Translations under genes and position numbers: made by a program | The notes under the pieces: model-generated | Database searches by the model: none | What the model saw: only the letters and a program-made list of their open reading frames with translations | Told to the model about the DNA's origin: nothing | IMG/VR virus record: IMGVR_UViG_3300005573_000240 | Location: 1 to 28,480 of that record | DNA length: 28,480 nucleotides | DNA from: a virus | Lineage: Duplodnaviria > Caudoviricetes | Strand: one strand, 5' to 3' | Shown: in pieces, positions 5,300-22,754 of the stretch | Layout: each line of letters starts with the position of its first letter | How positions within the stretch are numbered: the first letter of the stretch is position 1

Positions 5300-7152
5300 G
5301 AGAGCCACCCTTTATTGCGCGGGAGCCAGGATTCGTGTTGCGTCTGCCTCTCCGGCACTGGCCGCGCGCGCGCCAATAGGTCGAGCCTATCGGCCTCTCG
5401 GTCGATGAGCACTCCTTGCTGAGCCAGGCCGAACGTCGCGGCATAGGCGTAGACCGCGCAATCGAGCGCCTCTGCGCGGCGTCCCTTACGCCGTTCCCAG
5501 GTGCGCACCGGGCGTCCGCGCTTATAGGTCGTCCGTAGGAACTCACTAGTGAGCTGCTCGAAGTACTCCCTATCCACAGTCGCCGGAAAATGCGTCGCGC
5601 CCGGGCCGCTTCCGTTTCGGAGACGCGCCATGATCGTGGACTTCAGGCTGTCAACTCCGACCACGTAGAGCTTGCCGCGCTGACTGCGACTCTGACGCCG
5701 CGGCCAGGCTGGAACCGCTCCGCCCGCCCCCTTAATGGCCCAGATCCTACGGCCGGAGCGCTGCTCGCAGAACCGCGTCACAATCGCCGTAGCGAATCCG
5801 GCATCGACGCAGGTTGCCGCTATCGACATCGGCCCGCCGCGCGGATGCAGCCAGGGCTGGGACAGATAGCGATCCAACTCCGGCCACGGGCCATGATCGG
5901 GTCCGATCGTCGGATCGCCGGGGATGGTCCTGTGCTCCATCAGCCATGACTCCTCGCCGCGTCCCCACGCCCACACGCTGCACTCGATCCGGTCATCCTG
6001 CACGTCCGCTCCTGCGGTCAGGAGAGCGGCGCCGTCCGGCAATTGCGACCCGTACTGTTCCCTCCGCGCCAGTAGGTCATCGTCGCTCACCTGGGACGCG
6101 ACTTGGTCGTCCCAGAGCTCGGCCAGACTAGTGTTAACAAACGCGCGCAGTCGCTCCACGTTGCCTTGGGAGGCAAGCCATTCGGTGGCCAGCTCTGCCC
6201 AGGAGCGCCACGGGCTATATAGTTCGCTCAGGTGGAAACCTGCGATTTGCGCGTCAGCCCCCGGCTCCCAGCGCCCGCGGGCAACCATGCGCGATTTGGC
6301 TCCGTGCGGAATGAGTCGGTCGCAGCTCGCACAGCGGTACTGCGCTTCCTCCGGCTTTCCGTCCGGCCATTCCACGCGACCCCAGACGAGACGCTGGTAT
6401 TGGCCGCAGTGCGGGCACGGCACGTGATACTCGCGCTGGTCCGACTCGAGCCATGCTTGCTCGATGCGTGAGACGCCGCGCGTGGTTGGAGAGCTGACCA
6501 TGACAATCTTGCGATTCCAGAAAGTTCGCGTCCTCGCGATCGCCAGCGCCGCGGGATCGCCCTCCGCTCCCGCCGAGGCCTCCCAGCGATCCAGCTCGTC
6601 CATGAGCAGATACCGCACCGGGCGCGAGGCGAGGCCAGCCGGGGAATTACTCCCAACCACGGTCAGATGGCCGCCGATGAATCGCCGGTGGAAGATAGTG
6701 CTGCCGGCGTCGCGAGCGCGTGGGTCAGCCACCAGCCCATGCAGCACCTCGGTATCGCGGAACATCGGAGAAATGCGGTCTTTGCTGAAGGCCTCGGCCA
6801 TGGACAACGTCGGCTGCACGACTAGGATCGGCCCGGGCTGCATCGCGATAATGTAGGCGATCAAGGTCAGCAGCATTTCAGTCTTTCCGAGCTGGCTTCC
6901 CCACATCAGGACGACGTGAGCGTATCGACTCTGCGGGCTTAGCGCGTCTAGCACCTCGCGCTGGTACGGCAGCGTCATCCACGCGCCTGGCGCTGCGCTT
7001 GCTTCGCTCGAGAGCCGACGGTACCGATCGGCCCAGTCCGCTAGGCTGAGCCGCTCCGGAGGCCTCAGGGCCGCCGCAATTCTCGGAAGCAGCTCTGTCG
7101 CCGACGGCAGCAAGTCGAGAGCTGAGAGCCCGCAAGACGCTATCGCAGACAT
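5296..7152 (-). CDS. Terminase large subunit, lambda GpA family
   Basis: Walker A-like GSQLGKTE, Walker B YLLMDELD, VSSPT, CPHC/CASC zinc motif, nuclease GADVQDDR and EALDCAVYA. True start may be TTG at 7113. Confidence 0.95.
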   Translation of the reverse strand: MSAIASCGLSALDLLPSATELLPRIAAALRPPERLSLADWADRYRRLSSEASAAPGAWMTLPYQREVLDALSPQSRYAHVVLMWGSQLGKTEMLLTLIAYIIAMQPGPILVVQPTLSMAEAFSKDRISPMFRDTEVLHGLVADPRARDAGSTIFHRRFIGGHLTVVGSNSPAGLASRPVRYLLMDELDRWEASAGAEGDPAALAIARTRTFWNRKIVMVSSPTTRGVSRIEQAWLESDQREYHVPCPHCGQYQRLVWGRVEWPDGKPEEAQYRCASCDRLIPHGAKSRMVARGRWEPGADAQIAGFHLSELYSPWRSWAELATEWLASQGNVERLRAFVNTSLAELWDDQVASQVSDDDLLARREQYGSQLPDGAALLTAGADVQDDRIECSVWAWGRGEESWLMEHRTIPGDPTIGPDHGPWPELDRYLSQPWLHPRGGPMSIAATCVDAGFATAIVTRFCEQRSGRRIWAIKGAGGAVPAWPRRQSRSQRGKLYVVGVDSLKSTIMARLRNGSGPGATHFPATVDREYFEQLTSEFLRTTYKRGRPVRTWERRKGRRAEALDCAVYAYAATFGLAQQGVLIDREADRLDLLARARPVPERQTQHESWLPRNKGWLS

Positions 7153-8985: not shown

Positions 8986-10058
8986 GCAGGCACCTCCTTG
9001 ACGGCGCGCGTCAGCCCGCGCTTTCGCTTACCAGCGCACGAGCATGGCACGACTGCGTGCCGAAAAACGTAGATCGTTCCGCCGCAATCAGCGCAGCACA
9101 CGCTCTCTTGGAGCGCCCAGTAGGGGTCAGGGCGAGCCCTGGCCTGCACCCACTTCGGAAGATCGCCAATGGCGGAAAGGAACAAGCCGTCACTGCGCGG
9201 AGGAGCGCCTCGAGCCCTCTCGGCAATCCATTCGGCCAGGTATCGCGGATGAATGCCGGCGGCAGCAGCCGTCTGAAGCAGCTTTAGGGCCGTGCCGTCC
9301 CGAGGCGGCTTCCCCACAGCTTGCTGGAGAGCGGCTGTGATGTCCGCTACGCAGTCCGTTGTCTCCGGCGGGCTATTACCAGCTTCCGTAAGAGCCGGCC
9401 GGCTTGCCGCTTCCGCTTCTGCTTCCGCTTCTATATCCGCTTCCGCTTCTGCTTCCGCTTTGGGCTCGCCTAAGGCACGCCTAAGGTTTGCCTTTGGCTC
9501 GCCTAAGGCACGCCTAAGGCACGCCTTAAAGTTACGGTTTATATCTTCCATCGAACTTGATGATTCTTCAGAGCTTGCAAACTCACCAGATGTTTCGCAT
9601 GCTGATCCACCGGTGGAACCGCAGTCATTGTCCGAGCAAGGCCCGCCTTGGGCTTGCCTTAGGTTGGCCTTAGGCACGCCAAAGGTTTGCCTTTGGCTCG
9701 CCTTAGGCTCGCCTTGGTCAGCATGCGGAGGCGGAGGCAGTTCGGAAGGGGCCTCTCGTGGGTGCACCTTCTGGTGACGGGCAAAATTGACCACCTGGAT
9801 GCAGCGCACACCGAGCGCCTCATACCGACAAATGAACCCCATGCGATCTAGCTCCCCAAGCCACTGATCGACCACCGCGTCAGTGACATCGGAGCGCCAT
9901 GGGAACACCATGCCCGCGATCATACGCGGAGAATCTAGCAGCCTACCGTCCCGGTCTGCCGCGCACCATAGGCCAGCGAAGAGGAAATGAGCGCCGATTG
10001 GCAGCGCTGACAATAGCTGGTCCTCAAAGTATACAGGTTTGAGTAATCTCGCCCTCAT
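8982..10058 (-). CDS. Phage replication initiator (replisome organiser-like) with internal origin repeats
   Basis: N-terminal MRARLLKP.YFED...LFAGLWCAADRDGRL.D...NFARHQK wHTH typical of phage initiators; central repeats and an (AE)n tract; AGGAG RBS. Confidence 0.8.
   Translation of the reverse strand: MRARLLKPVYFEDQLLSALPIGAHFLFAGLWCAADRDGRLLDSPRMIAGMVFPWRSDVTDAVVDQWLGELDRMGFICRYEALGVRCIQVVNFARHQKVHPREAPSELPPPPHADQGEPKASQRQTFGVPKANLRQAQGGPCSDNDCGSTGGSACETSGEFASSEESSSSMEDINRNFKACLRRALGEPKANLRRALGEPKAEAEAEADIEAEAEAEAASRPALTEAGNSPPETTDCVADITAALQQAVGKPPRDGTALKLLQTAAAAGIHPRYLAEWIAERARGAPPRSDGLFLSAIGDLPKWVQARARPDPYWALQESVCCADCGGTIYVFRHAVVPCSCAGKRKRGLTRAVKEVPA
9457..9721. repeat. Two arrays of about 7 x 11-bp iterons (consensus GCCTWWGGYNN) flanking an AT-richer spacer; putative origin of replication
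   Basis: 9457-9533 (e.g. gcctaaggcac x3, gcctaaggttt, gcctttggctc) and 9645-9721 (gccttaggttg, gccttaggcac, gccaaaggttt, gcctttggctc, gccttaggctc), inside the initiator gene. Confidence 0.8.
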
Positions 10059-10077
10059 CTGATGCTCCTAATTTCGT

Positions 10078-10303
10078 GTCCCGTTTTGTCCCAAATTCGG
10101 TTCACTTTTGCCTTTTGCGTCCCGTTTTGTCCCATTTGCAATCACGGTATGTCCTTTATTTTCAACGCTCCTGTCCGTAAGTGATTGATCTGCGCTACCT
10201 TGACACGGTAGAGGTCTGGCGTTCAAATCGCCACGGGCCCACCATGTTTTCAACAAGTTACCAATCGCACTCATGAAATCGCGTCCCGTTTTGTCCCATT
10301 TGC
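10078..10303. mobile_element. attP site: tRNA-derived core with arm-type repeats and IHF-like sites
   Basis: GTCCCGTTTTGTCCCA at 10078, 10119 and 10283 on both sides of a tRNA 3' fragment; near-consensus WATCAANNNNTTR sites at 10178-10190 (minus) and 10248-10260 (plus); directly downstream of the integrase. Confidence 0.88.
10192..10244 (+). tRNA. 3' fragment of tRNA-Val(GAC) serving as the attP core; not a complete tRNA
   Basis: Anticodon arm CTACC-TTGACAC-GGTAG, variable loop AGGTC, T arm TGGCG-TTCAAAT-CGCCA, acceptor 3' strand CGGGCCC-ACCA. The 5' acceptor strand and D arm are absent. Confidence 0.9.
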
Positions 10304-11512
10304 CAACAAGGTAGAGGTCCTCATTCTGTCTCGTAGGCGGTCAACCACCTGCATCTCACGCCGCAGATCCTCGAGCGTATACTGCGCCGTAATGGCCGGA
10401 CGGCTGTGCCCAGCCTGGCGCATAGCTTCCAACAGCGTGGCGCCGCATTCTTGCCTCCAGGTGATCGAGAGCCGGCGTAGGGTGTGTAGACCAAATCCCG
10501 TGTGGTAGATTCCAGCCCGTCGCGCTGCCGGTCTCCAGACGTTCTGCTGTAGGTCGCGGTCATCGGGAATGCGTCCATCTGCCCGCGCGAAGACAGGATC
10601 ATCTGGCAAGCTGGTCTCAGGCCTTCGGAACAGAATCTCGTCTGCCAGCGGACCAATGTAGCGCTCGCGGCGGCTGCTTGTGGTCTTTGGATCGTCGATG
10701 TTCCCGCGCGCGTAGCGCCGCTCAATCCGGACCGTGCGCTTGGCTGCATCGATGTCGCTCCATCTCAGCCCCAGGGCTTCGCTGACCCGCAGGCCGGCGA
10801 CAAGACACAACTCCGCCAGCTGCCGCGCCTGCCACGCCGGCATGATGGACGTGTCGCGGATCTCATCGAGCCATCTAAGAATTTGTTCTTCCGTCGGCCT
10901 CGCGAACTCGCGCGCCGGTAAACCTCCGCGCCCTACGGGAGCCCCATGGGCAGGGTTCTCCCCAACCCATATGCGCCACTCGGTGGCGCACCGGAAGATG
11001 GCAGCGAGGAGATTGCGCAGATCGAGCCTGGTCGCCCGGCTGAGACTCGACTTCGCGAGCAGCCATTCTGCGATGACAGAGCGATCGATCTCTCCAAGCC
11101 GAAGATGCCCGAGGTCAGGCAGGATGTGATTGCGGAGGTGCGCCTCGTATTTGGCCCTAGTCGTGGATGCGAGGGTAGGCACGTGAGCTGCACGAAACCG
11201 CTCGATCACCGCAGCTAGCGTAAGCTGCGATGCAACGGTTACCTGACCGCCGTTGATCGTGGCCATGATCTCCGCCTTGCGCTTGCGCGCCTCGCGCAGC
11301 GTGATCTCGTCGCAGTAGCCGAGCCTTATTCGGCGGCGCACAATCTCCACCCGCCCGTCATCTCGGACGATACGTACGTATGGTCTGATCTCGTAATACT
11401 GCCGGCGGCGGCCGGCGCGCTCAATGTGTGGGTCCTGATACCGCATGAGCGTATCATCCCACTCAGCGAGCGCCAGCGCGAGACGGGGGTCAGGCATGGG
11501 CCAAGCGGTCAT
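10271..11512 (-). CDS. int: Tyrosine recombinase / phage integrase
   Basis: 413 aa; GLRVSEALGLRWSDID (R), DPKT (K), HTLRR (HxxR), AGHS (H), TAQY (Y); core-binding region YEAHLRNHILPDLG. Confidence 0.95.
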   Translation of the reverse strand: MTAWPMPDPRLALALAEWDDTLMRYQDPHIERAGRRRQYYEIRPYVRIVRDDGRVEIVRRRIRLGYCDEITLREARKRKAEIMATINGGQVTVASQLTLAAVIERFRAAHVPTLASTTRAKYEAHLRNHILPDLGHLRLGEIDRSVIAEWLLAKSSLSRATRLDLRNLLAAIFRCATEWRIWVGENPAHGAPVGRGGLPAREFARPTEEQILRWLDEIRDTSIMPAWQARQLAELCLVAGLRVSEALGLRWSDIDAAKRTVRIERRYARGNIDDPKTTSSRRERYIGPLADEILFRRPETSLPDDPVFARADGRIPDDRDLQQNVWRPAARRAGIYHTGFGLHTLRRLSITWRQECGATLLEAMRQAGHSRPAITAQYTLEDLRREMQVVDRLRDRMRTSTLLANGTKRDAIS

Positions 11513-11952: not shown

Positions 11953-12994
11953 GCGCCGTCCCTCCACCTGTTTGATCCGGCACCTCATCCCATGTGCGGG
12001 CGTCTAGTATCCGCCCCGCATTCCGCTTGCCGACGCGGTATACATACACCTCTCCGCAATCACTTGCGCCACCCGTGCGTCCGTTCCATGCTGTGGTTTC
12101 ACCGAAATAATTGCCAGCGCGGTCCAGGATGCCCCAGTGCGCTCCAGTGTTTCCAGCCGTGGGCTTATCGCCATCCGCGCCAAACTGGTCCTCAGGAAGC
12201 CACTCGCCCCATTGCTTGAAGAAAAATGGAACCCGCGCCGCCTTGCACTGGTCGCGGATCTGTCGAACCCAATCCGGATGCGTAGGTCGTGCTCCAGGCC
12301 CGGGCTCGCCACCGACGATTACCCAGTCGAGGTAACTGTCCTTGGGGCTGCGGGACTCACGCTCGATCTCGAGTATAGGCAGCCAAGTGTACAGATCCAC
12401 AGGCCCCAGTAACGGCTCGCACGATACGAACCTCAGGGCTGCCGGCGTCGCGAGCAGCTCCGGCACCCGCACCTCCGCCGCGCGCTGGTCCTCCACGCTC
12501 ACTCCCAACCACACGTTGGGCAGCGGCCATGCCTCCAACATACGAAACCCGCGCAAATGCCCTAAAAACCGAGCCTTGTTCTCAACCCGCTCCCGAGCCG
12601 AGCGTCCCACGTCAGCCAAAAACCGCCGCATTCGCTCCGCGCGCTTGGTCAGCACCATAAACACGTGCTGCGGTTCCAGCGCCATCACTGCAAACACCTG
12701 CTCAATCCATTCGTCCCGCGCCCCCTCGTGAAACAAATCCCCCATCGAGTTCACAAACACCCGCCGCGGCCGCTGCCATCCCACCGGCTCCATCAGCTTC
12801 TGCCCATTCCCCATCTCTACCCGGCCAGTCCACCGCGGCCCACTAGCACTAAACTGTGCCAGTCCGTCTTCCCCTGAACAAAACCGCGCCGCAATCCGCT
12901 CGGCGTAGCAGTTCCGGCAGCCCTCGCTCACGCGCGAGCATCCACGAATCGGATTCCATACGGCGTCGGCCCATTCGATCTTAGTCTTGGACAC
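11939..12994 (-). CDS. Phage Gp37/Gp68 family (DUF5131) protein
   Basis: TKIEWAD..WNPIRGCSRVSEGCRNCYA, FVNSMGDLFH, LTKR, NVWLGVSVEDQ, RFVSCEPLLG, DWVIVGGE and PFFFKQWG motifs. Confidence 0.93.
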   Translation of the reverse strand: MSKTKIEWADAVWNPIRGCSRVSEGCRNCYAERIAARFCSGEDGLAQFSASGPRWTGRVEMGNGQKLMEPVGWQRPRRVFVNSMGDLFHEGARDEWIEQVFAVMALEPQHVFMVLTKRAERMRRFLADVGRSARERVENKARFLGHLRGFRMLEAWPLPNVWLGVSVEDQRAAEVRVPELLATPAALRFVSCEPLLGPVDLYTWLPILEIERESRSPKDSYLDWVIVGGEPGPGARPTHPDWVRQIRDQCKAARVPFFFKQWGEWLPEDQFGADGDKPTAGNTGAHWGILDRAGNYFGETTAWNGRTGGASDCGEVYVYRVGKRNAGRILDARTWDEVPDQTGGGTAHGRA

Positions 12995-13745
12995 CGCTAC
13001 TTCTCCTTGCTCGTAGAGGCTCTAATTCAAACTCGGTCTGGTTTTCCGCCGGCATGGTGCACATAGTCTGGTTGTTTCTCTGCCAGTAGGATGGACGGAA
13101 TCCATATAGCATCCTCGGGCCCTTGTAGCCGAGTTCAGCCGGGACAGCGCGCATAAGCTTTCCCTCCGGACCGGCGACTGACCAGTCCTCAGACCACGGC
13201 TGGACGTCCCACCGCAGCACAGCGCCCCACCCTTGGTCGGTCTTTTTCCCCAGATGAGTCGCAAATCTTAGCAGCTCCGCGAGGCTCGGACGGTGGCCGA
13301 CTACGTACCACCGCGCGAAAATCGCATGCCTGTAAAAGACGGGCATGTGATAGGCCTTGTAGCGGCCACTCGACTCTTGCACTGCGCCCCATTTGCTGTC
13401 AGGGCCAACCAGGTCCGCGTGCTGGAAATCAAAGCGGCAATTCCAGAATTCCGATCCGCGCGCGACTGGTTCTGACCATTGCGCGAATGAAGCTGCATAG
13501 AACCACATTGGCTGGTGGCCGTTGATGCGCTTAAGCGGAAGCTGGACTCCGGGTACCGCATTGGGATGCGGCACGCCGCTGTAGGTCGCAGTGCGGTCGC
13601 CGTACTTCTCACGCATAGCTATCGAATACAGCACACCGTCCAATGGAAGCATAGCGTCGGAGATGACACCGCACTGGAGCCACGCCGTGATACAGAGTGG
13701 TTCGAACGCCGAGTCCGGAAGCCTGCGATAGGTGCCCTTGTTCAT
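12981..13745 (-). CDS. csf3: Type IV CRISPR-Cas Csf3 (Cas5-group RAMP)
   Basis: EPLCITAWL...LPLDGVL, LPL.R, WFYAAS, SGRYKAY, WYVVG, Gly-rich loop HLGKKTDQGWGAV, LMRAVP, RPSYW. ATG at 13745 overlaps the ibrB stop (ATGA). Confidence 0.85.
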   Translation of the reverse strand: MNKGTYRRLPDSAFEPLCITAWLQCGVISDAMLPLDGVLYSIAMREKYGDRTATYSGVPHPNAVPGVQLPLKRINGHQPMWFYAASFAQWSEPVARGSEFWNCRFDFQHADLVGPDSKWGAVQESSGRYKAYHMPVFYRHAIFARWYVVGHRPSLAELLRFATHLGKKTDQGWGAVLRWDVQPWSEDWSVAGPEGKLMRAVPAELGYKGPRMLYGFRPSYWQRNNQTMCTMPAENQTEFELEPLRARRSSGVQD

Positions 13746-14398
13746 TCCCGGATCTCCCATGCCTCCGAGAACTCCTCGTTGGCGAACAGGTCAGCCAAGC
13801 CGCCGATCTGCTTGAATCGCAGCACCTCATCAGGGTCCATGCCCAGCTCTTTGGCGATTTTCGCGTCGCTCCAATTGCGGCGCGACAGCTCAAGGACGAT
13901 CTCCGTCATCGCATCGACTTGGTGTCGTCCCCTGGCGCGGTTGTGCCGGATCGTGGCGGCCATCCGATTGTCAATGTCGCCTCGTTCTCCACGCACTGCT
14001 ACGATCGGCAGATACCCACGAATTCGCTCGCGCACGGCTTTGCACTCACGGCCCACCCGATTGCGGTGAAAACCGTCTACGACCGTATACTCGCCGGCCT
14101 CCTCAGGGTAGGCAACGATCGGCTGTGTGTAGCCATCAAGCGTGATGGAGAGCTCCAGGAGTCTCATCTCTGGCGGAGCCACGCGGTTCGGGTTGTATGT
14201 GTTGGCCCGTACACGCTCGGCTGGCACCCATTGGAGGCAATCCACGGGCTCGGAGGCGAACGGGCTATGCTTGGCCAGCTCGCGGCGCAGAGCGTTTATG
14301 GCTTCGATGCGTTCCGGCTCTTCAAGTCGATCGAGTTCGGCGAATAATTCAGAACATCCTTCAACGATTCTGTCGATTGCAGTTGTGCTTTCTCCCAT
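13742..14398 (-). CDS. ibrB: IbrB/YbdM-like ParB N-terminal-domain protein
   Basis: SPFASEPVDCLQWV, ANTYNPNRVAPPEMRLLELSI..DGYTQPIV, VVDGFHR, RMAATIRHNRARG, IAKELGMDPDEVLR; AAGGAG RBS before ATG at 14398. Confidence 0.9.
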   Translation of the reverse strand: MGESTTAIDRIVEGCSELFAELDRLEEPERIEAINALRRELAKHSPFASEPVDCLQWVPAERVRANTYNPNRVAPPEMRLLELSITLDGYTQPIVAYPEEAGEYTVVDGFHRNRVGRECKAVRERIRGYLPIVAVRGERGDIDNRMAATIRHNRARGRHQVDAMTEIVLELSRRNWSDAKIAKELGMDPDEVLRFKQIGGLADLFANEEFSEAWEIRE

Positions 14399-15597
14399 CG
14401 CTTTCTCCTTGCCTCCACCAGTCGCTTGTAGCGCTCCGGGTCGGCGCTCTTGAGCTGCGAGAATGACAGCCCCTTGCACCAGTAGTCATTCCGCAGCAGC
14501 GCCTTTGCGATGCGCCTCCAGCTCGGCACCTTTCGCGCGGCCTCCAGCTTTGGATCTGCCTCATCTGGGATAGTGGTCACTCCGCGCGAGGCCCACCAAT
14601 TGATGAACGTGTCAATGCGAGCCACGTAGTGCTCTCGCATGTGCTCAGGCATTGTGGCCAGGAGCAGTTTCGAGAACGACTGCCAAGTATGATGATCGGG
14701 CTTAGATACCCTGAGGTTGCCGCACATATTCCCGGCCTTATGCGCATAGAGTGCGCCTGCGTTGGCTCCGTTGACGCGCGCGACCACGCGGCCCCACGTC
14801 TCCGGCTCGATCACGTGAAAGAGATGAAGCCCCTTTCGCTGGTCATCTCCATACGGCTGGCAAATTCTCATCTGATGAATAGTCAGACCAGCCAGGTGCA
14901 TGCGGTCGTAGAGCTGGTTGTAGCGTTTGTGGGGATGCTTGGCGTGATAGATCCAAATGTCCCTGGTGCGCCAATCGTAAATTGGGTAGACATTGACACA
15001 GCCACCGCGCTTCACCGACGTCCATTTCTTTCCCTCGACGCACGCCTTTTCCGCCATCAACGTGCGGAATCGGTTTAGCGACTCGTCGGCGCGGATACCC
15101 ACCATGCAGGCCGCCGACTCGCCGCGCGCATACCAAGCCCCGAAGTCTTCCACGAACTCCTCAAACTCCATGCCCTCGCGGAAGAACGGGAAGGCGTCCA
15201 GATCGGTGATGGACATGGGCTCAGGCTCGCGCACCCACGCTTCCCTCTTGTTTTTGTCCCAGCAGTACCAACGCGGCTCGTATTGGCTGACTGCGTTCCG
15301 CAGGATCAGCGGCAGGGCGACCCAGTATGGCTCGGTGCAGTCTGCGTACTCGCGAAAGCAGGCCCTCACGTGATCTATGGTCAGCTTGTATTGCGCCTCC
15401 AAGTCGATGAACAGCAGCCCGAAACGCCGCCCGCGCCGGCGCGCCTCGTCAGCGGCCATATGCAGCATGACGGTGCTGTCCTTACCACCGGAGAAGGACA
15501 CATAGACGCGCTCGTAGTTGTCGAACGTCCACGCGATACGCTGCTTCGCCGCGGTGAATACGTCAATGCCGATGGGTCGCTTAAGTGCCGAAGGCAT
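14296..15597 (-). CDS. ibrA: IbrA/YbdN-like PAPS-reductase (CysH-like) protein with DUF3440 C-terminus
   Basis: PP-loop VSFSGGKDS, IDLEAQY, GIRADESLNRF, YPIYDW..DIW, MRICQPYGDDQRKGL, PSWRRI...LLRNDYWC. Confidence 0.9.
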   Translation of the reverse strand: MPSALKRPIGIDVFTAAKQRIAWTFDNYERVYVSFSGGKDSTVMLHMAADEARRRGRRFGLLFIDLEAQYKLTIDHVRACFREYADCTEPYWVALPLILRNAVSQYEPRWYCWDKNKREAWVREPEPMSITDLDAFPFFREGMEFEEFVEDFGAWYARGESAACMVGIRADESLNRFRTLMAEKACVEGKKWTSVKRGGCVNVYPIYDWRTRDIWIYHAKHPHKRYNQLYDRMHLAGLTIHQMRICQPYGDDQRKGLHLFHVIEPETWGRVVARVNGANAGALYAHKAGNMCGNLRVSKPDHHTWQSFSKLLLATMPEHMREHYVARIDTFINWWASRGVTTIPDEADPKLEAARKVPSWRRIAKALLRNDYWCKGLSFSQLKSADPERYKRLVEARRKRWEKAQLQSTESLKDVLNYSPNSIDLKSRNASKP

Positions 15598-15605
15598 GCA
15601 GTTCC

Positions 15606-16487
15606 TCACATCTGTGATAACAGACTGCGAATTTCATCGGCATGTTCACGGATGTGTTCCTCGTATAGCGCTCCGGATGGAAGCGCAAGTTCGAGCACCT
15701 GGTCGCTCCCGAAACCGGCACCGAGCCACCGATCGAGCGACGCGGACAAATGGCCCATGCCAATGTTGCCTTTGCCGCCGACGACCGGGCGCTTCAGCCA
15801 CTCTCGCAAGGCAGTAGCGAATGCGCTGAACTCCATGTCTGACGGGTCGCGCAAAACAATCTGCCAGTAAAATGTCGTTCCGGCCGCGAATGTCTCGACG
15901 TAGTACATCATCTGAGCCGTCTCGTCTGCTGCCACTGAAGGCTGCGCGAGCGACGCATTCTTGTGCTGGTCTCCAGAGTCCTCCTTGCGCGTGTACATCT
16001 CATCCTGGAGGTACTCGTGCACTGATATGGAGGCGCACTGCATCGAGGCGAAATGCTCGGGCAGCAGGTGCTTGGTTTCCGCGCAAACGGGGATAAGTTT
16101 GCCGATGTCCAGCTTGCCCGGCAGGATCGTGTTTCCGACGGCCCCGCCGAACACACTAGCAAGCGGAATCAATCGCCGGAGCCGCAGTGCCTCATTTATT
16201 CCGATGGACCTGGTTGGATCGCTGGTCAGCGATCCGCCGCTGAATAGGAAGTGGAATGCGGGCAGCGGGAGCGAGGTCCCAAGGGTCCGGCACATGTGAA
16301 GCATTCCGACATCGCGGATAATGCCACGAATTGCATTGCCGCTTATGACTGGCACCTCTTCAACGCCTCCGTCCGGCTGAACAAACTTCTCGCGGCGGAG
16401 CTTATTGTCGATGCCAAACGATTGACCGCCGTTGTGCGAAATGCTTGATATCGCGGTGGCCGCGGTGCGGCAAATATAGTTCGTCAT
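15606..16487 (-). CDS. csf2: Type IV CRISPR-Cas Csf2 (Cas7-group backbone RAMP)
   Basis: SSISH, VPVISGNAIRGIIRD, FLFSGGSL, SVFGG...LPGKL.IG..IPVC.ET, YTRKED, QMMYYVETFAAGT, Gly-rich loop VGGKGNIGMG. Confidence 0.92.
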   Translation of the reverse strand: MTNYICRTAATAISSISHNGGQSFGIDNKLRREKFVQPDGGVEEVPVISGNAIRGIIRDVGMLHMCRTLGTSLPLPAFHFLFSGGSLTSDPTRSIGINEALRLRRLIPLASVFGGAVGNTILPGKLDIGKLIPVCAETKHLLPEHFASMQCASISVHEYLQDEMYTRKEDSGDQHKNASLAQPSVAADETAQMMYYVETFAAGTTFYWQIVLRDPSDMEFSAFATALREWLKRPVVGGKGNIGMGHLSASLDRWLGAGFGSDQVLELALPSGALYEEHIREHADEIRSLLSQM

Positions 16488-16825
16488 AGCTGTTTCTCCT
16501 CGATTTCCTGTCGTCGCTTCTCATTGGCGATTCGCGCCAGCAAAACCAGCGTGGTCGCGTCCTCCCGCAGCATTTTGAGCAGATGTTTGTCTTCTCCACT
16601 CGTTACTACGGAGGCGACCGTCGCCCTGTCCTCGCTCCGTATCTCGATGGCGAGCCGCTGGGAGACCTTATCCAAGAACTTGCTAAGCGTCGAGTATCTT
16701 GCGGCGCTTCTGATGTTGTCTTCCAACTGCTGCCAAATGGTCCTGTGATATTTGACCTTGTAGGCGTCCGGAACCCCACGGAATAAGGGATAAACCAATT
16801 GCTGAGACAACTGCTCAAGCGTCAT
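16484..16825 (-). CDS. cas11: Type IV-B small subunit (Cas11/Csf4-like)
   Basis: 113 aa, predicted all-helical (IWQQLEDNIRSAA...LSKFLDKVSQRL), located between csf1 and csf2 as in IV-B loci. Confidence 0.72.
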   Translation of the reverse strand: MTLEQLSQQLVYPLFRGVPDAYKVKYHRTIWQQLEDNIRSAARYSTLSKFLDKVSQRLAIEIRSEDRATVASVVTSGEDKHLLKMLREDATTLVLLARIANEKRRQEIEEKQL

Positions 16826-17474
16826 TGCGCTGCTCCTTGGTTGCCAGAAATAAAGCCAGATAGAACTCCAGCGACCCTCGAAGGGGCTTTATCTCGCGCT
16901 CACATTCCAACCGCTCATCAAGGCAAAATCTCTTAATGCGCGATTGGGAGTAAGAGCCACTGGCAATTTCGCACTTCGAGAATCCTGCGGCATAGAGACG
17001 CTCAATCGGCCGCATAGCCGCGACAAGAGCACCCGGGAACGGGAGCGCGGATTGATCCTCGATTTGCCACCAGCCAGGCCGCGCGCGCGTGATAAGGTGC
17101 TTCTGACCGCTGATGGCGATGATCGCGACCTGCGGTTCTCTAAGCAAGCATGATAGGATCTTGCGCCTGTCACCCAGCGAGCATGGAAGCCATTCGCCAT
17201 CGACCACGAAGTGCGCATAGTTTCTCATGCGCTGCGGCTTGTCTTTGCCGACAAGTCGCGCTAGGAGCCCGTTGGCGTCCGTAAAGCAGAACTGGCAGGC
17301 GTGGCAGATGATATCGCCTGGGAGGAGCTTGTCGAAGTCGGTGAAGGTGGGGCGTACCCACCGGGAAAACGAGATTCCGCGGCTAGAAAGCCCGCACGCG
17401 CGGCAGAGCCCTGTCTCGCGCCCGAGCATTTCAGGCGAGCCGGCAGCCTGCCAGATAATCTGCGGAACCGTCAT
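16815..17474 (-). CDS. csf1: Type IV CRISPR-Cas Csf1 (Cas8-like large subunit)
   Basis: Two CxxC motifs (CRACG, ICHAC) with FTDFD between them, and SGQKHL; ATG at 17474 overlaps the upstream stop (TGATG). The track ORF starts at 17489. Confidence 0.82.
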   Translation of the reverse strand: MTVPQIIWQAAGSPEMLGRETGLCRACGLSSRGISFSRWVRPTFTDFDKLLPGDIICHACQFCFTDANGLLARLVGKDKPQRMRNYAHFVVDGEWLPCSLGDRRKILSCLLREPQVAIIAISGQKHLITRARPGWWQIEDQSALPFPGALVAAMRPIERLYAAGFSKCEIASGSYSQSRIKRFCLDERLECEREIKPLRGSLEFYLALFLATKEQRNDA

Positions 17475-17731
17475 CACTCCTCCTGCCACGGGCGCAGTGT
17501 AAACGTATCTAGCGATCTAGGGTCCACGCCCACGGCTTCTGCGGCTGAAAGAAAGCCGTTCAGGAACCCAGTCCATGGGCACGTGTCCCAATGAGGTGCA
17601 TTGGTCGTTCCGCCGCGGTATGGCATACATGTGCATCGCAGATACTCGGACCACTGATCCAAACGCCGGTTGAGCGCCTGCCTCAGGGCCTCGCGCTGCT
17701 CCTGTGCCATGTCGACTCTGATAGGCGCCAT
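17474..17731 (-). CDS. Hypothetical protein
   Basis: 85 aa (MAPIRVDMAQEQREAL...), TAATG coupling upstream and TGATG coupling to csf1. Confidence 0.6.
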   Translation of the reverse strand: MAPIRVDMAQEQREALRQALNRRLDQWSEYLRCTCMPYRGGTTNAPHWDTCPWTGFLNGFLSAAEAVGVDPRSLDTFTLRPWQEE

Positions 17732-21011: not shown

Positions 21012-21039
21012 TTGACACGCGCACACAGTATGATAATAT
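21012..21039 (+). promoter_or_regulatory. Rightward sigma70 promoter (extended -10), probably leaderless
   Basis: TTGACA (21012-17), 16 bp, TAATAT (21034-39) preceded by TGn; AT-rich upstream tract; ATG 6 nt downstream with no RBS. Confidence 0.7.
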
Positions 21040-21045
21040 GAAAAT

Positions 21046-21342
21046 ATGAAGAGCACAGAGAAGCGGATCAGACGAGAAGAGGGCTGCCCTGCTTGCGGCA
21101 GCCATCTGGAGACGATCATCGACAGGTACCCGATGGTCTATAGGTGTGCCAAATGCGAGGCCATCTACGGATCGTGCTCTCTTGGTGAGAGCTACGGTCT
21201 TGTACTGCCTTACATGGCGAACGAGGAAGTACCAGATGAGCGAATCCGGTACTTCGACCTGCTGTGCTTGGCATCCGGCGGGCTCAGACGCCGGCACGGA
21301 TGGTACGACACAGAGACCAAGAGGATCGTCCAGATTGGATGA
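21046..21342 (+). CDS. Zinc-ribbon hypothetical protein
   Basis: 98 aa, CPACG...CAKC; first gene after the rightward promoter. Confidence 0.7.
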   Translation: MKSTEKRIRREEGCPACGSHLETIIDRYPMVYRCAKCEAIYGSCSLGESYGLVLPYMANEEVPDERIRYFDLLCLASGGLRRRHGWYDTETKRIVQIG

Positions 21343-21348
21343 TCCTAG

Positions 21349-21414
21349 CCGCCTGATGAGTCCCGGGAGCGGACCCGGGACGAAACACCCCACCGGGGTG
21401 TCGCGGAAAACCGC
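21349..21414 (+). ncRNA. Type I hammerhead ribozyme
   Basis: CCGC-CTGATGA-GTCCCGGG(agcgga)CCCGGGAC-GAAA-CACCCC(acc)GGGGTG-TC/GCGG: complete catalytic core, three stems, GUC cleavage triplet (cut after 21402); intergenic. Confidence 0.93.
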
Positions 21415-21427
21415 AGGAGGAGGAGAT

Positions 21428-21661
21428 ATGAAGCCGTTGAGAGTTAAGAATCAGGACGAGGCCACGTGGCTCAACCGCAATGTGTTGCATTGCGGTTGGG
21501 TGGTCCCAGGGCAGCTATGGGACACCGCCGAAGCGTGGCCAGATCCAAAGGACCGCGCGCTGGCGCATGAGATACTCAAGCGCTACCGCAAGGGTGGCGC
21601 TAACGCTGTGGTCACTGAAGCGGAACGACGGCAGCTTGCGGTCTGCTGCCGAGAGGATTAG
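21428..21661 (+). CDS. Hypothetical protein
   Basis: 77 aa MKPLRVKNQDEATWLNRN..., strong AGGAGGAGGAG RBS just after the ribozyme. Confidence 0.7.
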   Translation: MKPLRVKNQDEATWLNRNVLHCGWVVPGQLWDTAEAWPDPKDRALAHEILKRYRKGGANAVVTEAERRQLAVCCRED

Positions 21662-21676
21662 CCGTTAGGAGGGAAT

Positions 21677-22255
21677 ATGCAGATATCATTTAGGCATCAC
21701 AAACATGACGGCGAGGAATACCCCCGTCATGGTGTAGTGGAAGTCGCACTGAACCGGCCCTATGAGGGCATGGTCACGGTCCGCCCGCTCCGGGGATGCG
21801 CCCCGGAGGCGTGGCTGCTCCCCCGTCTGCTTGAGGCGGCGGGAGTGGCGTCGGTGCGCTTCGAGGGCGGAGCGTACCGAGTGACCGTAGCGTCCGAGTG
21901 GCGCTATGGAACCCGCGAGATCCGTCCGCTCGGCTACACCGGGCGGGAAGGGTCTACGTCCGCCTACTGGGCCCACTACTGGGCCCTGAACCCAGACGGC
22001 TCCCGTCACCATGCGGTGGCCGGCGTCCACGTGTCCATGTGTGGACGATTGAACGAGCAGATCTGGGGATATCCAGATCTGCTGCTTTACGGGACACGCA
22101 TGGCGTTCCCCTCCCCATTGTCCACCGAAGTGGACGTGCGGGTCCTGCAGGACCCGCTACGGATCGACCACCCGGCTCCCGATGGGGAATTTGTGTTCCC
22201 CGTCGAAGGGTTCGAATATCCCGAACCTCTGGCGGTACCGAAGGTGAGTCTATGA
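21677..22255 (+). CDS. Hypothetical protein
   Basis: 192 aa, AGGAGG RBS, ATGA-coupled to the next gene. Confidence 0.7.
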   Translation: MQISFRHHKHDGEEYPRHGVVEVALNRPYEGMVTVRPLRGCAPEAWLLPRLLEAAGVASVRFEGGAYRVTVASEWRYGTREIRPLGYTGREGSTSAYWAHYWALNPDGSRHHAVAGVHVSMCGRLNEQIWGYPDLLLYGTRMAFPSPLSTEVDVRVLQDPLRIDHPAPDGEFVFPVEGFEYPEPLAVPKVSL

Positions 22256-22422
22256 AAAAGGAACTGCCTAAAACCCGCATCACGATCACCGTCACCAAGG
22301 GGCTCCAGCGCAGGCTGGAAGACGAGCGGTGGCGGCGCAGGGCGCGATCGCTCAGCGCCATGATCGAGGAACTGCTCTGGCGCGCGCTTGACGGCGCTGG
22401 AGAGAAAAAGGAGAAACAATGA
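22252..22422 (+). CDS. Ribbon-helix-helix protein (CopG/Arc-like; possible Aca-type regulator)
   Basis: MKKELPKTRITITVTKGLQRRLEDERWRRRARSLSAMIEELLWRAL shows an RHH beta-alpha-alpha pattern; coupled to the DUF1874 gene. Confidence 0.75.
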   Translation: MKKELPKTRITITVTKGLQRRLEDERWRRRARSLSAMIEELLWRALDGAGEKKEKQ

Positions 22423-22754
22423 GGTACATTCTGAACAGCGCAGTGATCACTGCACCCGGCACCTACGAGTACCGGGTGATCGACCCTACCCTGGCCCGTG
22501 CCTGGGCCGAAAAGGGGTCATTCATGTCCACAATCGGGTACACGGAGACGGCGGCGTTTGCCACCGAGCTGCTGGGCGTGCCGGTGCCGGTGAATCGGGT
22601 CATGGTCTCCATGGCCCCGGGAGACGAGGCGCTTGTGGTGCGCCTCGTGCTGCCTCCGGGCAGTCCGAGGATTGATCCGTCCGACAAGGGCCGGCTGGGG
22701 CGGCTCGTGCTCGAGGGAAATTTCGAACTCGGGCTGCTCCGGCGGCTCCAGTAG
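22419..22754 (+). CDS. acrIII-1: DUF1874 / STIV B116 / YddF-family protein, AcrIII-1 ring nuclease homologue
   Basis: YILNSAVITAPGTY, STIG[Y]..TA.F..ELLG, VPVNR, GDEALVVRL, C-terminal GLLRRL resemble B. subtilis YddF / AcrIII-1; the conserved GH appears as GY. Confidence 0.82.
   Translation: MRYILNSAVITAPGTYEYRVIDPTLARAWAEKGSFMSTIGYTETAAFATELLGVPVPVNRVMVSMAPGDEALVVRLVLPPGSPRIDPSDKGRLGRLVLEGNFELGLLRRLQ

Follow-up and report, generated by a model that had tools for sequence, protein, structure and literature searches.

An intergenic type I hammerhead ribozyme in a phage accessory operon, with a conserved tail word complementary to its stem I

Hundreds of bacterial hammerhead ribozymes lie near prophage genes, some in clusters that flank single genes (Perreault et al. 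2011, PMC3088659), and phage hammerheads flanking genes were found to cleave in vitro and in E. coli, with 14 of 18 consensus candidates active (PMC3088659). Their position between phage genes as processing sites has been known since that work of 2011 (PMC3088659), and the purpose of bacterial and phage hammerheads was still described as undefined in a 2019 review (PMC6765202). Where the host has RNase J, a cut that leaves a 5′-OH should lead to loss of the downstream message, as for the glmS ribozyme, whose 5′-OH product is degraded by RNase J1 (PMC3997798). How, then, could a phage benefit from a ribozyme that would cut its message directly ahead of a ribosome-binding site? We address this question at a locus of the Caudoviricetes record IMGVR_UViG_3300005573_000240, of which positions 1 to 28,480 (28,480 nucleotides, the entire record; hereafter the window) were analysed.

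A complete hammerhead between two small genes

Read base by base on the plus strand, positions 21349-21406 hold a type I hammerhead ribozyme. Stem I (4 bp, CCGC 21349-52 with GCGG 21403-06) is followed by the core strand CUGAUGA (21353-59), an 8-bp stem II (21360-67 with 21374-81) closed by loop II AGCGGA (21368-73), the core strand GAAA (21382-85), and a 6-bp stem III (21386-91 with 21395-21400) extended by the core pair A21385-U21401; the cleavage site GUC ends in C21402, after which the cut is predicted. Judged by the consensus of PMC3088659, the core (C3 U4 G5 A6 N7 G8 A9, G12 A13 A14 A15, U16, H17) is complete at 21349-21406, the core-adjacent pairs G21403-C21352 (1.1-2.1), G21360-C21381 (10.1-11.1) and A21385-U21401 (15.1-16.1) are all present, and the order is that of type I, with stem I open and stems II and III loop-closed. 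The complete type I hammerhead claimed in a preliminary description of this DNA is therefore there, element by element and in place, with no defect in core or stems.

Several searches single out the same site. A type I descriptor run on both strands of the window matched it alone, and the same descriptor had no match in 300 dinucleotide-shuffled windows, even at 3/3/3 bp. An 88-nt piece containing the hammerhead folds 4.5 SD better than its own shuffles. The Rfam search that the preliminary description had proposed as a check did find Hammerhead_1 (RF00163) at 21347-21408, with 23.7 bits and an E-value of 0.12, which is below the gathering score of 34; by score the ribozyme is thus not a member of RF00163, though it has the features that define the class. 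A covariance model built from 49 relatives with the window left out returned it as the sole match in the window, with 62.3 bits and E = 1.3e-16; in these relatives, which had been chosen for having the stems, the three stems are paired in 99.6% of cells and display 166 two-sided changes. No glmS-type ribozyme was matched by Rfam in the window at E up to 1. As far as can be judged from its sequence, 21349-21406 is a genuine hammerhead, very probably active, whose class and setting are both known. With the type I hammerheads of PMC3088659 (RF00163, clan CL00010) it shares the consensus core, the type I order, a pseudoknot contact, the site between genes and the proposed processing of a polycistronic message.

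The ribozyme lies between gene 1 (21046..21342, plus strand), which encodes a 98-aa CxxC/CxxC zinc-ribbon-like protein with homologues in other records, and a set of downstream ORFs of 77, 192, 56 and 111 aa on the same strand (genes 2-5, 21428..22754). Upstream of gene 1, at the beginning of this short plus-strand island, a sigma-70-like promoter (21012..21039, plus strand; TTGACA, a 16-nt spacer and a TG-extended TAATAT, 10 of 12 positions matching) is one of two promoter-like sites in the window, where shuffles give 0.7. Transcription from it is predicted to begin roughly at the gene 1 ATG (21046), ahead of which there is no Shine-Dalgarno (SD) sequence, and this position of the promoter suggests that the gene 1 message is leaderless. 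A comparable layout stands ahead of the hammerhead in the viral record L453 (G114; 5503-5545, minus strand); as a family trait, a leaderless gene 1 had no case among 93 loci in a strict scan. At its other end, gene 1 runs into a predicted 11-bp hairpin (21322..21346, plus strand; −16.6 kcal/mol with RNA parameters) that ties up a UCCU otherwise able to pair with the SD, and a second in-frame stop, TAG (21346..21348, plus strand), abuts stem I, where relatives often place the stop of the upstream gene. The predicted cut falls 25 nt ahead of the ATG of gene 2 at 21428, which is preceded by the SD AGGAGGAGGAG (21415-25; SD and start together 21415..21430, plus strand). No terminators were found around the operon.

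The fourth ORF downstream (22419-22754, plus strand, 111 aa) belongs to the STIV B116 / AcrIII-1 family. The AcrIII-1 ring nucleases have an absolutely conserved catalytic His, His47 of SIRV1 gp29 (10.1101/778746). At the position where the solved relatives AFV3-109 and STIV B116 have a His, this ORF has Tyr41, and it thus lacks the residue that defines the ring nucleases; it might still bind cyclic oligoadenylate but leave it uncut, or have no activity. Among viral contigs, searches with single proteins returned no relative of the 98-aa or the 192-aa ORF. The DNA runs that best match the window are hot-spring metagenomes, which may be its source, and no RNA run stood among the matches listed. 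Two of these runs share a 9,676-nt contig in which a homologue of the 192-aa ORF is preceded, about 1 kb upstream, by a related hammerhead.

A common subfamily in the slot between stop and start

We next evaluated how widespread this form of the ribozyme is and where its relatives sit. Two overlapping hammerhead patterns were used in viral DNA, with an estimated ~850 and ~390 stretches, of which at least 124 and at least 127 were listed; all counts below use representatives less than 80% similar to one another, and loci too short for the tested window were dropped. The merged set comprises 82 representatives with the CCGC/GCGG stem I, and among the 142 listed matches to the loop-II pattern, 120 are of type I. 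In bacterial and archaeal genomes, the CCGC/GCGG form was matched in 88 stretches, mostly from Bacillota, with cyanobacteria, Alphaproteobacteria, Chloroflexota and others, one Burkholderiales title, and no title among the 88 naming Bacteroidota. The ribozyme of the window is an ordinary member of this common phage and prophage subfamily. Its element, used as a BLAST query against cultured phages, gave only three partial matches (E 0.06-9).

The relatives occupy a consistent position. Within 60 nt of the cut, 75 of 144 representatives have an SD plus a start codon, compared to 12% of 2,067 random positions; the genome set gives 23 of 55. On the other side, a stop triplet ends 4-7 nt ahead of the core in 85 of 150 representatives, and 55 of these 85 abutting stops close an open frame of at least 50 codons, compared to 59 of 574 triplets further upstream. 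Promoter-like sites within 650 nt upstream were detected in 16 of 93 loci, and in 5, 5 and 2 in three control strands. This conserved arrangement of stop, ribozyme and ribosome-binding site supports the earlier proposal that the message is processed at the junction of genes 1 and 2.

Among 85 gene 1 homologues with enough downstream DNA (6 more were too short), none is followed after its stop by a type I hammerhead, and in two records (L357 and L359, with the same sequence) a type II hammerhead follows, which argues that the ribozyme is not tied to its neighbour gene. Type II hammerheads (RF02276) can thus occupy the same stop-to-RBS slot in another permutation, and their 3′ product, which carries most of stem I and the CUGAUGA strand, would have a structured 5′ end by default.

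Other arrangements were seen around these loci. L357 has three type II hammerheads (143-209, 504-572 and 1015-1086, likewise in L359), two of which bracket the gene 1 homologue. Downstream of the gene 1 homologues of L322 and L326 there are core words that have no Rfam match, and in L279, L280, L297, L298, L335, L339 and L340 GC-rich hairpins, recognized by eye, occupy the stop-to-SD slot after the homologue. Tandem arrays of three or four type I hammerheads spaced 300-700 nt apart occur in L164, L173, L124, L242 and L429-L431. A search of 13 arbitrary viral records for type II hammerheads, run without a positive control, returned none.

A tail word with two predicted partners

Directly behind stem I, the window continues with AAAA (21407-10) and a tail word CCGC (21411-14, plus strand). 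Before the cut, this tail is the predicted pseudoknot strand, able to form 4 bp with GCGG (21369-72) of loop II, as the preliminary description had proposed. A first scan constrained nothing beyond the core and the 3′ strand of stem I, and yet GG in loop II and CCGC in the tail recurred in most of its 15 loci. Across the subfamily, at least four Watson-Crick pairs between loop II and tail are available in 56 of 82 representatives, compared to 25.5 ± 3.7 after swapping of tails, a null that, like the shuffles used below, ignores shared ancestry. The paired words differ widely in sequence (e.g., TAGC/GCTA, TGAC/GTCA, GATCC/GGATC), and with loop and tail anchored independently, the position beside GG/CC (loop+2/tail-1) pairs in 38 of 52 cases vs 17.5 expected. 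The proposed contact is thus borne out by covariation. Stem I/II pseudoknots have been reported in all three hammerhead types, in ~40% of representatives (PMC3088659); in our general type I set there is no excess of the loop II/tail pairing (11 of 80 vs 13.7), so that this pseudoknot is a feature of the subfamily.

After the cut, the same tail could instead become the 3′ arm of a hairpin at the very end of the downstream product. This predicted hairpin (21403-14, GCGG-AAAA-CCGC) has 4 bp, an energy of −4.6 kcal/mol and no unpaired 5′ base. Of the 82 representatives, 51 retain a CCGC that could re-pair with this new 5′ end and 31 lack one; in 29 of the 82 the word stands 3-6 nt after stem I, as in the window. 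Among the remaining 53, it is found 7-20 nt from stem I and apart from the pseudoknot strand in 22 (e.g., L418, L449 and L388), compared to 5.2 ± 2.1 in shuffles, none of 5000 of which reaches 22; as controls, words of the same composition gave 2-6, and later windows 2 and 7. The distant CCGC often stands directly behind a pseudoknot strand of altered sequence, and it is kept at variable distance, behind unrelated spacers and in several phyla. Hammerheads with other stem I sequences also carry the complement of stem I in the tail, in 32 of 122 cases vs 13.8 after swapping and 20.0 after shuffling. The alternative product hairpin of the preliminary description is therefore matched by a complementary tail word that relatives conserve beyond chance. 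Where a relative has its pseudoknot strand apart from the putative capping word, either can be altered alone.

Repetition of CCGC around the ribozyme could also come from a target-site duplication. This source is not favoured, as the repeat has no significant extension beyond stem I: 8 of 22 vs 4.7 expected in the distant class (p 0.07) and 7 of 29 vs 7.1 in the near class.

Taken together, these patterns lead us to favour, with a probability of roughly 0.55, a co-transcriptional cut helped by the pseudoknot, followed by a protective 5′ hairpin. The operon message would be cut after C21402 while being transcribed, and the contact between loop II and tail would assist the cut; the freed tail would then fold back onto the new 5′ end as a 4-bp hairpin, releasing the product and shielding it from 5′-end nucleases such as RNase J. 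Two RNAs would result, that of gene 1 with a terminal cyclic phosphate and that of genes 2-5 with its SD exposed and a stability of its own. We infer that transcription, cleavage, the order of folding, release, protection and the purpose of the hairpin likely take this form. If true, a conserved capping tail would explain how cutting can serve expression.

RNase J requires unpaired 5′ bases and is blocked by a 5′ hairpin, and extended hammerheads re-ligate well. A full-length RNase J match was obtained for 68 of 71 host genomes of the subfamily, a count with no background sample, from a taxonomically uneven set in which Paenibacillus relatives are abundant. The presence of RNase J in these hosts would fit a need to protect the new end; beta- and gamma-proteobacteria mostly lack the enzyme (PMC3997798). 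Stabilisation of the mRNA by the cut, which the preliminary description had raised, is plausible on this model.

The main alternative for the tail word is an ordinary constitutive processing site, at which the ribozyme cuts and the product hairpin serves no purpose, having arisen from shared descent and from a pseudoknot rich in GC (GG/CC). The hairpin is missing in the 31 subfamily members without the word. Most other type I hammerheads lack it as well: of 149 unselected representatives, just 30 have a short-looped hairpin of 4 bp. Extending the hairpin by a fifth pair gives no covariation where the CCGC is distant (8 of 22 vs 7.7) and a weak one where it is near (11 of 29 vs 6.6); at positions that distinguish loop II from stem I, the tail base agrees with loop II 12 times and with stem I 6 times; the group with a non-GCGG pseudoknot has, by itself, a marginal excess (11 of 43 vs ~7); and none of the nulls accounts for descent. 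What this explanation accommodates poorly is the retention of CCGC at variable distance and in several phyla where the pseudoknot sequence has changed, together with the excess of complements to other stem I sequences. Overall, we regard it as unlikely, though it deserves consideration.

Predicted folding brings in two further alternatives. During transcription, stem I is predicted to form with a probability of 0.98 until 21412, falling to 0.49 at 21414 and to ~0 at full length, which points to two competing partners for the tail, loop II and the 3′ strand of stem I. These values include no pseudoknot term, and neither does the preference of the full-length precursor for an inactive fold (−42.8 vs −33.4 kcal/mol). 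The tail hairpin might thus act as a kinetic or translation-coupled switch that competes with stem I before the cut, so that only messages that fold in time, or on which no ribosome is stopping at gene 1, are cut, freeing the SD and tuning genes 2-5. In addition to the loss of stem I as the tail is transcribed, 55 of 150 relatives have the stop of the upstream gene directly against stem I, and the predicted accessibility of the window's SD at 37 °C is 0.99 after the cut, compared to 0.24-0.80 before it, depending on the assumed start of the precursor. However, the pseudoknot, which stabilises the active fold, is beyond what the folding program can score; in a 21300-21470 context the SD is open either way (0.89 vs 0.86); and of 77 relatives, 16 gain more than 0.3 in accessibility while 4 show a fall, the mean rising only slightly, from 0.48 to 0.57. 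Any truncation raises accessibility. We consider such a switch doubtful. The 'activation' of the downstream mRNA suggested in the preliminary description is context-dependent: the SD is predicted to be freed for some precursor starts and to be open before and after the cut in the 21300-21470 context.

The second alternative is that the tail has overtaken stem I altogether and that the motif is an inactive or misfolded relic serving as a structured spacer. The minimum-energy fold of 21343-21430 indeed lacks stem I, and 4 of 18 consensus candidates were inactive in PMC3088659, but the core and stems of the window are free of defects and the same tail arrangement is found in 29 diverged relatives with intact cores, which makes a relic very improbable.

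Under the favoured reading of a cut followed by a capping hairpin, the locus can be set beside known systems. The glmS ribozyme likewise leaves a 5′-OH on a downstream coding RNA (PMC3997798), but it is triggered by a metabolite and its product is degraded by RNase J1, whereas the window has no evident ligand site and its product is predicted to be hairpin-capped. Synthetic insulators of the RiboJ type combine a hammerhead with a hairpin before the RBS. They share with the window a cut that fixes the 5′ end just ahead of the RBS, and differ in being engineered, while the hairpin of the window is built from the ribozyme's own stem I strand. The dual-use tail conserved in a subfamily appears to be the new element here, the class and its context being already known. 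Neither the stem-I-complementary tail word nor a stop abutting stem I appears in the running text of PMC3088659 that was compared, and the motif does not occur as an ungapped text string in its searchable supplements. The parts of PMC7967978 and PMC12192606 that were available hold nothing on a product hairpin, and full-text literature searches, whose coverage leaves out most subscription papers, found no report of a conserved product-capping tail.

The type IV locus on the other strand

The record combines lambda-like head genes, an integrase and RecE/RecT with a minus-strand type IV-B-like locus (12981..17489) of csf3, parB, a cysH-like gene and csf2, in which parB and the cysH-like gene stand between csf2 and csf3. 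Csf2 and Csf3 match NCBIfam models under the cut-offs, and the CysH-like gene adjoins them; candidates for csf1 and cas11 in the window are based on position, with no HMM match. No CRISPR-like repeat spacing was seen in the window, and no 12-mer repeats with a period of 50-90 nt. Of the earlier picture of a phage with a guide-less type IV system and an Acr homologue, the locus and the lack of an array stand, with the qualification that the Csf matches are sub-cut-off and that a Tyr replaces the catalytic His of the Acr homologue.

Type IV-B systems lack both Cas6 and an array, and their RNA is not known (PMC7937560); complexes in one structural study bound heterogeneous RNAs of 55-60 nt (PMC7937560). 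The ribozyme could therefore be imagined to replace Cas6 by making 5′-OH and cyclic-phosphate ends for loading onto the type IV-B complex. Csf2-like genes, which sit in real type IV loci, were detected in 4 of 99 viral records of the subfamily (3 of 50 and 1 of 49) and in none of 50 controls (13 arbitrary records, 10 that hold gene 1 homologues and 27 that hold other type I hammerheads), many of the records being fragments; a Csf2 match was found in just 1 of 50,697 cultured phage records; and among four records with a close Csf2 there is a twister in one and a type II hammerhead in another. Yet the difference between 4 of 99 and 0 of 50 has a Fisher p of 0.19, the nearest ribozymes in the four subfamily records lie at ~3, 3.5, 9 and 30 kb from csf2, one type IV system among these records encodes its own Cas6, and none of the four close-Csf2 records carries the window's subfamily. 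The contexts read are the ordinary stop-to-RBS slot in a separate small-gene operon with its own promoter-like site, and a single cut site in the record would yield gene-length products and not RNAs of 55-60 nt.

We thus consider a substitute for Cas6 highly unlikely. The idea of Cas6-independent RNA ends, offered speculatively in the preliminary description, has little in its favour, given a single site with gene-length products, 5 kb from csf2 and on the other strand, and a co-occurrence that is not significant (p 0.19). Its general form, in which phages with array-less type IV systems would use hammerhead or twister ribozymes of accessory operons to make Cas6-like ends and the Csf complex would load the cut RNAs, strikes us as equally far-fetched. 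Shared phage groups explain the co-occurrence of ribozymes and type IV loci more simply than shared function.

The four type IV loci in viral records are at L453 7857-10905, L454 6850-10929, L455 2495-9656 and L469 3293-7487; two include CysH, one has Cas6 and a DinG/Csf4-like helicase, and one is followed by a B12 radical SAM gene. The sole match to Csf2 among the 50,697 cultured phage records is orf42 of Skermania phage SPI1 (L470; 36% identity), annotated as hypothetical, and no ribozyme was matched in this phage. Twister ribozymes (RF02684), although of another class, can take the same slot as the hammerhead: in L267, a type P5 twister (15342-15397, minus strand) comes right after a stop, 4 kb from csf2 and on the other strand, in a layout like that of the window.

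Two further features of the window lie outside both operons. At 9407-9725, within the replication initiation gene, two inverted 11-nt repeat blocks and a run of 6-nt repeats are probably the iterons of an origin, and the word GTCCCGTTTTGTCCCA, present three times at 10065-10313 at the end of the integrase gene, possibly marks integrase arm sites.
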